Below are positions 45,118 to 58,549 of a stretch of DNA of 64,000 nucleotides, piece after piece. The notes beneath the pieces are model-generated. The model did no database searches, was not told where the DNA came from, and saw nothing but the letters and a program-made list of their open reading frames with translations. Each line of letters opens with the position of its first letter. Within the stretch, counting starts at the first letter, position 1. Position numbers and translations under genes: made by a program. Origin of the DNA: Escherichia coli (GTDB taxonomy: Bacteria; Pseudomonadota; Gammaproteobacteria; Enterobacterales; Enterobacteriaceae); NCBI RefSeq assembly GCF_044647545.1, contig NZ_CP172818.1. One strand, written 5' to 3'.

Positions 45118-45645
45118 TTAGAACATCAGCGCCGTACGGCGACGTTTTTCTGCGCTCAGTTGTTCAAGTTTATTACGATCGACACAAATCAGCGCATGGG
45201 TCGGGCAAGCCGCCATACACGCCGGGCCGTCTTCACGATGGTTACAGAGGTCGCATTTATTGGCTTCGGCTTTGTCAGCCCGTACGTTAAGCCCTGCGCC
45301 GCTGTTGCGAATCACCGGACGTACCACCACTTCCATCGCGCCATACGGGCAAGCCACAACGCAGGTTTTGCAACCAATGCAACGTTCCTGCATCACATGA
45401 ACAAACCCTTTATCACGGCTGATAGCACCATTCGGGCAGACGTTAGCGCACGGTGCATCTTCACACTGACGGCAGACTGTTGCCGTAGAAATGTTCACAC
45501 CTTTAATGACATGGATTCGCGGTAAAAAAGTTTCCGGGGTCAGCGATGCACAGTCCTGATTCTCCTGATGAGAAACCACGCACGCCACTTCACAGGTACG
45601 GCAACCAATACATTTACTCGCGTCAGCAATGATGAAACGGTTCAT
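45118..45645 (-). CDS. hydN: 4Fe-4S ferredoxin-type electron transfer protein HydN
   Basis: ORF track frame 45118..45660; start placed at ATG 45645 ([22 protein letters not shown]...). Confidence 0.93.
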
Positions 45646-45793
45646 CAAATTCTCCAGCAATGACAGTTAATGCGCCGATACATTCACAAATCATGCCAGT
45701 TTTTAATTTACTGTTATTTAAAGAAATTAAATTCTGTAATGCAGGAAAAACGATGTCATCGACACTAGTGACGATGACATGTGTTGACAATGT

Positions 45794-54966: not shown

Positions 54967-56793
54967 TCAGGCTCCTCGTGAAACAATAATCACCACCAGC
55001 ACCGCCAGTTCAACCAGCGCCATCCGGCGGAACAGCAACGCACTCCCCTCGCACTGCCAGCCCGGCACCAGCGACACCGGATTCAGCCATTTGCGTAGTT
55101 TCAGCACCGGCGCAAACGCCTGTTTCACCGGCATGGCAAAACCGTGAGCGGTAATCACCATTGATTTTTCATGATCGTAGCCGCACACCCAGGCCGCGCC
55201 GCGGGAACGCGACGGCAAACGATCGCCTTTGCAAATCGCCATAATGATGAATGGCAGCAGCGGGCAGGCAATCAGCAGCAACGTGATCATGGGTTGAGAA
55301 ACGGTGGTGTTAGCAGGCTCCAGCGGCAGAGGTACAGCAGCAGAGAGCATCGGCAGTAGCCACGGCGCAGCAACACCGCCAATTACGCAGCAAATCGCCA
55401 GTGCCACTACGCTTACGCTCATCAGGAGCGGCGCACAGGTGGCGTTTTCGGCCTCTTTGGTACGCGGCGCGCCGAGGAAAGTAACGCCATAAACTTTCGC
55501 CATACACATCACCGCCAGCGCACCGGTAATTGCCAGCCCCACGGCAAGCAGCGGCCCGAGAAGACGGGCAACAAACGCGCCACTATTGCTCAGTTTGAAG
55601 AAGGATTGATAGATAACCCATTCCCCGGCAAACCCGTTCAGCGGCGGCAGCGCAGCCATTGCCATCAGCCCGACTAACATGGCGATGGAGATAACCGGCA
55701 TTTTCTTGCCAATACCACCGAGTTTTTCGATATCGCGATGACCGGTACGGAACCAGACGCTCCCCGCCCCGAGGAAAAGCACGCTTTTGAACAGGCTATG
55801 GTTAAGCAGATGGTACAGACCACCAACCAGACCAAGGGCAATCAGCGCCGGTTGTTCGAGCGCGATACCCGTTACGCCAGCGCCCAGCCCCAGCAGGATA
55901 ATGCCGATATTTTCCAGGGTGTGGTAAGCCAGCAGGCGCTGGATGTTATGCTCCATCAGCGCATACAGACCACCGACGAACGCGGTGATCATACCGAGCA
56001 CCAGCAGCGCGATCCCCCACCACAGCGGTGCGTTACCGCCCAGCAGTGACAGGGTTAAAATGCCCAGCAGGCCAATTTTCATGACTACCGTAGAAAACAA
56101 CGCGGCAGCTGGCGCAGAGGCGTTAGCATGTGCCTGCGGCACCCAGCCGTGCAGCGGAATAATCCCTGCCAGCAGACCAAAGCCAATCACACCGAGCAGC
56201 CAGATATCGGAACCGAGCGGCAGCTGTTGCATACGCATATCCAGCAGGCGCAGATCCAGCGTGCCGTAACGCTGCCACAGCAGCCAGCAAGCAATCGCCA
56301 GCAGCAGAGTGCCAAGACGTCCCAGAGCAAACCACAGTTTGCCCTCTTTGCTGTTGCTGGTGAGGAACACCGCACACAGGGCCATGATTTCGGCCATTAC
56401 CACGAACATGCCGAGGTTGCTGGCGATGACGGCACAGACGGCGGCAGCCATCAACATATTGATCTGCAAGCCGTTGCACTTCACCTGCGCGTGGCGATGC
56501 CAGTCAATGTTGTAGAGGCTGATAAACAGACCGCACAGACCGAGCGTAATCAGCCAAATCGCGTTAAGCGGAGAGATTTGCACATCGTAGCTTACCAGCG
56601 ACAGCGCACCGCTCACGCCAACCGCGCCAGTCAGCACTGTGAAGCCCGCGGCTGCCGTATACAGGCCACCCACCGCGCCGCCAATTCCGGCTATCCAGCC
56701 GCTTAGCGCCTTTTGAAAAGAAAAGAGAAATGCCAGAACAGCGGCGGCGACAAACCACGCCACGCCGCTATTGATCAGGGAAATTGCGCTCAT
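54967..56793 (-). CDS. hycC: formate hydrogenlyase membrane subunit (NuoL-like)
   Basis: ORF track 54967..56793, 608 aa. Confidence 0.95.
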   Translation of the reverse strand: MSAISLINSGVAWFVAAAVLAFLFSFQKALSGWIAGIGGAVGGLYTAAAGFTVLTGAVGVSGALSLVSYDVQISPLNAIWLITLGLCGLFISLYNIDWHRHAQVKCNGLQINMLMAAAVCAVIASNLGMFVVMAEIMALCAVFLTSNSKEGKLWFALGRLGTLLLAIACWLLWQRYGTLDLRLLDMRMQQLPLGSDIWLLGVIGFGLLAGIIPLHGWVPQAHANASAPAAALFSTVVMKIGLLGILTLSLLGGNAPLWWGIALLVLGMITAFVGGLYALMEHNIQRLLAYHTLENIGIILLGLGAGVTGIALEQPALIALGLVGGLYHLLNHSLFKSVLFLGAGSVWFRTGHRDIEKLGGIGKKMPVISIAMLVGLMAMAALPPLNGFAGEWVIYQSFFKLSNSGAFVARLLGPLLAVGLAITGALAVMCMAKVYGVTFLGAPRTKEAENATCAPLLMSVSVVALAICCVIGGVAAPWLLPMLSAAVPLPLEPANTTVSQPMITLLLIACPLLPFIIMAICKGDRLPSRSRGAAWVCGYDHEKSMVITAHGFAMPVKQAFAPVLKLRKWLNPVSLVPGWQCEGSALLFRRMALVELAVLVVIIVSRGA

Positions 56794-57401
56794 TTAGCCT
56801 CTCCACTTTGAGCCTGCTGAAACAAGGTGAGATCGCCAAAGTCCGTGTTAAAAGTCAGCTCACGCTTACGTTTGCTGACGCGGGCGATATCGGTGTTATC
56901 CACCAGATGCAGGGCTTTAGTCGGGCACATCCGCACGCAGGCCGGACCTTGTTCATCAAAACTACAAAGGTCACATTTGACGGCGATCGCGCGAATACCT
57001 GGCACCCAGTCAAGCAATGTGCTGACACGCGCCGGAGCAGGCGGTGCCGGTGGCGCTTTCGGGGTATTGGCGTTTGCCGGAATATCCAGCGGACGGCTGC
57101 CGGAAAATTCAATTGCGCCAAACGGGCAGGCGATGCCGCACAGTTTGCAGCTTACGCACAGACTTTCATTCAACTGCACGGCCCCATCAACGCGGGTGAT
57201 GGCGTTAACCGGGCAAACCACCGCACAGGGCGCATCTTCACAGTGGTGACAGAGCTGCGGCGCAGATTCTTTTTCATTGAGCATCACTCGCAGGCGCGGC
57301 ATTGATTGCAGGCCGTGCTGGCGATGCGTCTCTGAACAGGCGGCCTCACAGGTGTGGCAGCCGATACAGAGCGTGGAGTCAGCAATTACAAAACGATTCA
57401 C
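56790..57401 (-). CDS. hycB: formate hydrogenlyase 4Fe-4S electron transfer subunit
   Basis: ORF track 56790..57401, 203 aa; initiation codon read in sequence is GTG (plus-strand cac at 57399-57401) with GAGGA RBS. Confidence 0.95.
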   Translation of the reverse strand: MNRFVIADSTLCIGCHTCEAACSETHRQHGLQSMPRLRVMLNEKESAPQLCHHCEDAPCAVVCPVNAITRVDGAVQLNESLCVSCKLCGIACPFGAIEFSGSRPLDIPANANTPKAPPAPPAPARVSTLLDWVPGIRAIAVKCDLCSFDEQGPACVRMCPTKALHLVDNTDIARVSKRKRELTFNTDFGDLTLFQQAQSGEAK

Positions 57402-57525
57402 CAGGCATTCCTCAGGTGATTGTCATTTTTGACGAAAACATGCCGATGAAATGTCATTTTCGACACTCATCGACACGCCCATCCCCAAACAGGCGTAACG
57501 CCTGCAAAACGGGCAAAGCCTCAGC

Positions 57526-57987: not shown

Positions 57988-58022
57988 TGTCAGGTTACCC
58001 GTTTAACAGAGATGCCAGCTTT

Positions 58023-58040
58023 AAGCATTTTTTATGCCAA
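58023..58040 (-). promoter_or_regulatory. candidate sigma54 promoter of the hyc operon
   Basis: Minus strand reads TGGCAT-aaaaaa-TGCT with GG-N10-GC spacing, about 35 bp upstream of the hycA start; hyc is known to be sigma54/FhlA-dependent. Confidence 0.6.
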
Positions 58041-58152
58041 CTTTTAATTCATTGTTATTAAAACGATTTTTAAGCTAAAGATGAATTTCGTCGCCGTGTC
58101 GACGTGTCATTTCGACATCATCGACATTATTCACCGCAGGGATAATCAACAC

Positions 58153-58168
58153 TGGCACAATTATTGCT
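58153..58168 (+). promoter_or_regulatory. sigma54 promoter of the hyp operon
   Basis: TGGCAC-aatta-TTGCT, about 30 bp upstream of the hypA ATG. Confidence 0.75.
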
Positions 58169-58198
58169 TGTAGCTGGCAATAGTTAATGGGAGGCGAT

Positions 58199-58549
58199 AT
58201 GCACGAAATAACCCTCTGCCAACGGGCACTGGAATTGATCGAACAGCAGGCCGCAAAACACGGCGCAAAACGCGTAACTGGGGTCTGGCTCAAAATTGGC
58301 GCATTTTCTTGTGTCGAAACCAGCTCTCTTGCCTTTTGTTTTGATCTGGTTTGCCGCGGCAGCGTGGCGGAAGGTTGTAAACTGCACCTCGAAGAACAAG
58401 AGGCCGAATGCTGGTGTGAAACATGCCAACAGTATGTGACGCTACTGACCCAGCGCGTCCGCCGCTGTCCACAGTGTCATGGCGACATGCTACAAATTGT
58501 GGCAGACGACGGTTTACAGATTCGGCGGATAGAAATAGACCAGGAGTGA
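58199..58549 (+). CDS. hypA: hydrogenase nickel insertion protein HypA
   Basis: ORF track frame 58187..58549; start placed at ATG 58199 (MHEITLCQ...) with GGGAGG RBS; CxxC...CxxC zinc motif. Confidence 0.95.
   Translation: MHEITLCQRALELIEQQAAKHGAKRVTGVWLKIGAFSCVETSSLAFCFDLVCRGSVAEGCKLHLEEQEAECWCETCQQYVTLLTQRVRRCPQCHGDMLQIVADDGLQIRRIEIDQE

Follow-up and report, generated by a model that had tools for sequence, protein, structure and literature searches.

The hycB gene of Escherichia coli, as found in a stretch of 64,000 nucleotides (contig NZ_CP172818.1 of assembly GCF_044647545.1; hereafter the window), almost certainly initiates at GTG. Its product is an iron-sulfur subunit that transfers electrons in formate hydrogenlyase (FHL), a complex that evolves hydrogen. 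The GTG start is correct and ordinary, and it is already present in the reference annotations. The new observations are that the GTG, its Shine-Dalgarno (SD) sequence and codons 3-6 are frozen or nearly so across the Enterobacteriaceae, and that a 61-mer carrying ATG in place of the GTG has no exact match in 5,426 E. coli records. The frozen start codon, SD and early codons suggest that initiation of HycB translation is tuned. GUG-initiated genes make up a substantial minority of bacterial genes. Our best explanation joins the GTG start to a second element, in which the weaker start codon and the strong, well-spaced SD together constitute a selected expression set-point for HycB; the sequences show where the start lies, its reading frame, its homology and its conservation, and this reason for the retention of GUG is one that we infer. 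The coordinates of the features discussed are given in Table 1.

Table 1. Features of hycB and its leader in the window
Feature	Position	Strand	Basis or remark
hycB initiation codon GTG, read as fMet	57399..57401	-	Sequence; RefSeq and K-12 annotation; 80/80 species loci
Shine-Dalgarno GAGGA of hycB	57409..57413	-	7-nt spacer (ATGCCTG) before GTG
In-frame TGA, 8 codons 5' of the hycB GTG; bounds N-terminal extension	57423..57425	-	
hycB CDS	56790..57401	-	203 codons plus TGA; ORF list (203 aa, start GTG)
Codon 34 ATG of hycB, the first in-frame ATG; rejected alternative start	57300..57302	-	
ATGA, hycB stop TGA overlapping hycC start ATG	56790..56793	-	Sequence, ORF list, RefSeq
Conserved repeat blocks TGTCGATGAGTGTCGAAAATGACA and CGTCAAAAATGACA, directly 5' of the hycB ribosome-binding site; candidate FhlA upstream activating sequence	57421..57475	-	

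An earlier note, made from the letters of the window, had proposed a GTG start for hycB preceded by a GAGGA SD. The plus strand reads CAC at 57399-57401, which gives GTG on the minus strand at 57401..57399, and the sequence, the ORF list, RefSeq and the K-12 annotation agree on this codon; the proposed SD is likewise present, at 57413..57409. With codons indexed by script, the start region on the minus strand is CAAAAATGACAATCACCTGAGGAATGCCTG-GTG-AAT-CGT-TTT-GTA-ATT-GCT-GAC. The hycB frame is free of ATG, GTG and TTG from the TGA at -8 to the GTG, and again from codon 2 to codon 33. Two other near-cognate codons are improbable starts on sequence grounds, as both are unfavourably spaced from the SD (CTG at -1 by 4 nt, ATT at codon 6 by 22 nt); among the candidate starts, only the GTG has a well-spaced SD. 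hycB thus combines a near-cognate start with an SD in the range of about 5-10 nt (GAGGA, 7 nt, GTG). At the other end of the gene, the overlap of the hycB stop with the hycC start is the usual signature of translational coupling.

The earlier assignment of the gene as hycB is confirmed by structure and annotation. Residues 1-203 of the predicted protein are 100% identical to chain B of PDB 7Z0S, 'formate hydrogenlyase subunit 2' (E = 2.5e-139), and chain B of PDB 7Z0T is likewise identical over 1-203. RefSeq (PGAP) places the hycB CDS at exactly the same start, between hycA and hycC, and the ORFs and RefSeq features give the order hycA-hycB-hycC with hypA-E divergent. In K-12 MG1655 the corresponding gene (b2724, NP_417204.1) has a CDS of the same length (612 nt), the same GTG and an identical leader; it differs from the window gene in a few silent positions (e.g. 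ACC/ACT at codon 17 and CGA/AGA at codon 38) and in nothing of substance. Many E. coli chromosomes, those of many non-K-12 strains among them, match a 901-bp region around hycB at 100% identity, and the region is annotated there as hycA, hycB and hycC. Of 5,426 complete E. coli genomes, 5,425 contain this region and one lacks it; one genome carries an additional copy on a plasmid record.

HycB begins MNRFVIAD and contains 16 cysteines in four motifs (C12/15/18/22, C51/54/59/63, C82/85/88/92 and C143/146/155/159). The protein exceeds the cut-offs of Pfam 4Fe-4S dicluster domains. No NCBIfam model scores above its own cut-off, although RefSeq nevertheless names the protein HycB; the best NCBIfam matches are to models of paralogues, namely AegA (144.9 bits, cut-off 1003) and HydN (129.9 bits, cut-off 260). 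A cryo-EM study of the native FHL complex assigned strong density in HycB to four [4Fe4S] clusters, B1-B4 (PMC9474812). Four clusters require all 16 cysteines and hence the N-terminal motif, although these clusters do not themselves identify residue 1. Our literature search turned up no experiment that directly defines the N-terminus of HycB (by Edman degradation, N-terminal peptide mass spectrometry or initiation-site ribosome profiling in anaerobic, formate-induced cells) and no relevant explicit statement or experiment on the GTG start.

Two paralogues bear on the position of residue 1. HydN (45121-45645 in the window, minus strand) and HyfA (b2481 in K-12) are, like HycB, multi-[4Fe-4S] ferredoxin-like subunits of formate and hydrogen metabolism, with 45% and 51% identity to HycB, respectively. 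All three begin M-N-R-F-[VI]-[IV]-A-[DE], followed at an equal distance by CxxCxxCxxxC, and an alignment of the three shows no variation at M1, N2, R3 or F4. Both hydN (ATG at 45645..45643, minus strand, MNRFIIAD) and hyfA (AAGGAG-N6-ATG AAC CGC TTT in K-12) initiate at an ATG that aligns to HycB residue 1, whereas hycB alone of the three uses GTG. Position 1 of the NCBIfam HydN and AegA profiles also aligns to HycB residue 1, and residue 3 of HycB3 of Thermoanaerobacter kivui (7QV7) aligns to HycB residue 2.

The orthologue comparison that the earlier note had suggested was carried out on the 80 species-level genome loci listed, beyond which 148 further relatives were found. The survey covered Escherichia, Salmonella, Citrobacter, Klebsiella, Raoultella, Enterobacter, Lelliottia, Kluyvera, Kosakonia, Pseudocitrobacter, Superficieibacter, Mangrovibacter and other genera. 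Codon 1 of hycB is GTG in all 80 enterobacterial loci. The SD core AGGA is also present in 80/80 and the full GAGGA in 79/80, the exception being L042 with AAGGA; the first G of GAGGA occurs in at least 80% of 79 distinct aligned sequences. All 12 N-terminal cysteines are in register across the 80 loci. Within E. coli, the 61-mer centred on the GTG has an exact match in 5,366 of 5,426 records, and its version with ATG for GTG has an exact match in none of them. Extension upstream of the GTG was considered and rejected on account of the in-frame TGA at -8. The upstream stop occupies -8 in most of the species surveyed; in some Kosakonia-type loci there is a TAG at -2. An in-frame ATG, TTG or GTG lies upstream of the start in six of the 80 loci, without an SD, and in two of these loci (L042 and L063) the upstream ATG falls inside the AAAAATGAC block.

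The synonymous positions of hycB codons 3-6 (CGT TTT GTA ATT; 57384-57395, minus strand) are nearly frozen across the 80 species. As judged from these alignments, this suggests that selection may act on the 5' coding sequence at the level of RNA or of initiation. One genome in the survey calls for comment. Locus L005, on a 6.6-kb contig of a metagenome-assembled genome labelled 'Citrobacter sp.' (DXKH01000118.1), encodes a HycB that is 100% identical to the E. coli protein, and another contig of the same genome (L017) encodes a Citrobacter-type hycB (95%). The 6.6-kb contig probably derives from E. coli and was assigned to the wrong bin.

The invariance of the GTG is best seen against silent sites in the same genes. 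In the first 100 codons of hycB, none of nine A/G twofold sites and one of 26 fourfold sites are invariant among the 80 loci, and over hycB and hycC together only one of 92 silent sites is invariant among 75 loci. The sole invariant fourfold site among the 92 is codon 3 of hycB (CGT). Silent sites of hycB and hycC at which G is the majority base show a mean of about 6 G<->A changes by parsimony, with one of 34 showing none. If the first base of the hycB start drifted like a silent site, the probability of no change would be about 0.003. A fairer yardstick than silent-site drift is the published genome-wide rate for GUG starts, which tend to switch to AUG at 0.0398 per triplet comparison, against 0.0842 at matched fourfold sites (Belinky, Rogozin and Koonin 2017, PMC5622118); hycB shows no such switch in 80 species or in about 5,400 E. 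coli genomes. At the published GUG rate, the probability of zero GTG-to-ATG switches on this tree is about 0.06. The same study found that genes with GUG or UUG starts have stronger conservation of the SD, and that, in slowly evolving genes, a subset of GUG starts is under purifying selection (PMC5622118). Both parts of this pattern fit hycB, which resembles GUG-initiated genes in general in pairing a near-cognate start with a strong, conserved SD.

An invariant GTG, saturated silent sites and the lack of any exact match to the ATG-variant 61-mer in the E. coli records together argue that the non-ATG start is kept by selection. We hold this argument with moderate confidence, since the signal is borderline: as read from sequence comparison, the hycB GTG appears to be constrained, and marginally more so than the average GTG start. 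More speculatively, and with a probability that we would put well under even, the hycB GUG may be an actively maintained low-efficiency codon that, possibly together with a start-sequestering hairpin and the frozen codons 3-6, sets the level of HycB relative to the other Hyc subunits encoded on the same mRNA.

Immediately 5' of the start region the conservation is strong because a repeat block is located there. The hycA-hycB spacer (57402-57525) holds TGTCGATGAGTGTCGAAAATGACA at 57452-57475; in a pairwise local alignment, 22 of 24 positions agree with TGTCGATGATGTCGAAATGACA, located at 58105-58126 between hyc and hyp. Aligning the three putative enhancer regions with MAFFT was not informative. 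GTGTCGATGA recurs 5' of hydN (45755-45764), and the hyc and hydN leaders have in common an AT-rich stretch that ends in a -24 TGGCAT. The second block, CGTCAAAAATGACA (57421-57434), hardly varies among the species and is parted from the hycB SD by 3-4 variable bases. Work from the Böck laboratory, by Schlensog and by Hopper with colleagues in 1994 and by Leonhartsberger with colleagues in 2000, reportedly placed an FhlA upstream activating sequence that serves the hyp promoter between hycA and hycB. The blocks at 57421-57475 are probably this FhlA enhancer for the hyp promoter, located inside the hyc transcript.

Several further features were observed. About 30 nt 5' of hycB, Kosakonia and relatives (L068, L070, L071, L074, L075, L076 and L078) have CGTCAAAAATGAC replaced by (G)GGTGAATCACC. 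The replacement is a near-palindrome that repeats the GGTGAA of the hycB start and could pair with the same TCACC, and the GTG and SD are retained in these loci. Elements of the sigma-54 -24/-12 type occur before hycA (TGGCATAAAAAATGCTTA, 58021-58038, minus strand), before hypA (TGGCACAATTATTGCTTG, about 58150-58167, plus strand) and before hydN (TGGCATGATTTGTGAATG, about 45680-45697, minus strand), and all three resemble the Salmonella sites of PMC3844500. The hypA ORF (58187-58549, plus strand) starts in the ORF list at the ATG at 58187 (120 aa, MGGDMHEIT...), and RefSeq has a 351-nt CDS from the second ATG, at 58199 (MHEIT...).

Three other accounts of the region were considered. One is that HycB starts at Met34 (57302..57300), in which case the protein would have 170 aa and three Cys motifs and the stretch from the GTG to Met34 would be untranslated leader. 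Its single point in favour is that ATG is the commonest start codon, and we give it virtually no chance of being correct. The earlier note had placed the first in-frame ATG at codon 33; script indexing moves it by one, to codon 34. Its contention that a start at this ATG would delete the first CxxCxxCxxxC holds, as C12-x2-C15-x2-C18-x3-C22 lies upstream of Met34, and its view that the GTG is needed for an intact ferredoxin domain is supported both by the four clusters of the cryo-EM structure (PMC9474812) and by the loss of a Pfam dicluster match on truncation: Fer4_9 (residues 12-68) scores 40.2 bits in the full-length protein and 25.5 bits after truncation to Met34, below its cut-off of 27. 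Moreover, residues 2-33 are kept as protein across the 80 species while their codons vary synonymously (e.g. 2, 7, 14, 17, 19-21, 24 and 25), the paralogues begin at the MNRF position, and no SD precedes the ATG at codon 34. Nor is Met34 a conserved start, for L079-L081 have Leu or Ala at residue 34 and their first ATG at codon 40. Met34, which would cost the protein Cys12/15/18/22, the first of its four motifs, was rejected as the hycB start.

The other two accounts accept the GTG and differ from the set-point reading in the reason for its invariance. The codon could be kept for a regulatory mRNA hairpin in which TCACC (57418..57414) pairs with GGUGA (57402..57398) and AAAAAUGA with UCGUUUU, with the SD partly exposed; a G-to-A change in the start codon would then break a G-C pair. 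The 60-nt E. coli sequence does form a moderately stable fold with the start codon fully paired (MFE -14.4 kcal/mol, z = -2.25), the local MFE rises to -9.1 kcal/mol when GTG is changed to ATG, and the almost invariant synonymous sites of codons 3-6 are consistent with such a structure. Over 23 distinct sequences 86% of cells are paired, a percentage biased towards the hairpin since the model was taken from one of the aligned sequences. Among these 23 sequences there is, however, no covariation: a single pair is changed in both partners, and values as high as those observed arise in 105-121 of 500 shuffles. The RNAalifold consensus is a weak and different helix (-2 kcal/mol). The TCACC arm is broken without compensation, and the GTG kept, in the Lelliottia-type loci L044, L046 and L047 (TGTCC) and in the Mangrovibacter loci L079 and L081 (TCGACC), and Kosakonia lacks the AAAAATGA arm while retaining CGTTTTGTAATT. 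Given the weak consensus, the lack of covariation and the uncompensated arm breaks, we regard the hairpin as an improbable explanation and a minor rival only. Less probable still, at about the level of an outside chance, is a constraint on the DNA itself, namely an overlapping protein site that extends the upstream FhlA enhancer, with selection on translation not the cause. The conserved repeat blocks do end at 57421, only 20 nt 5' of the GTG, and the G at -1 and GGTGAA are invariant. Nevertheless, both the 3-4 nt that follow the ...TGAC block and the SD-GTG spacer vary freely among species, which indicates that the enhancer block and the hycB start are separate islands. The invariant GGTGAA-CGTTTT also runs into the coding sequence, where N2, R3 and F4 are protein-constrained as well, and the Kosakonia loci without the CGTCAAAAATGAC block still carry GTG.

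Under the preferred reading, a GTG start retained as part of an expression set-point, the 30S subunit would be positioned by the GAGGA located 7 nt 5' of the GUG, and initiator fMet-tRNA would read this near-cognate codon. The 203-aa product includes the first Cys motif, C12-C22, which is needed for the full set of four clusters. As a four-[4Fe-4S] ferredoxin-like subunit of FHL, HycB carries electrons from FdhF (formate dehydrogenase H) to hydrogenase 3.

The GTG start has little significance beyond annotation quality. Constructs in which hycB is cloned or over-expressed for hydrogen production should include it or knowingly swap it for ATG. It is this start that gives HycB its first [4Fe-4S] motif and so completes the relay of electrons that runs from FdhF to hydrogenase 3. 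If the GUG is indeed maintained as a low-efficiency codon, its replacement by AUG would disturb FHL assembly or fitness. A tuned initiation of HycB could be a lever when the stoichiometry of FHL is re-engineered.
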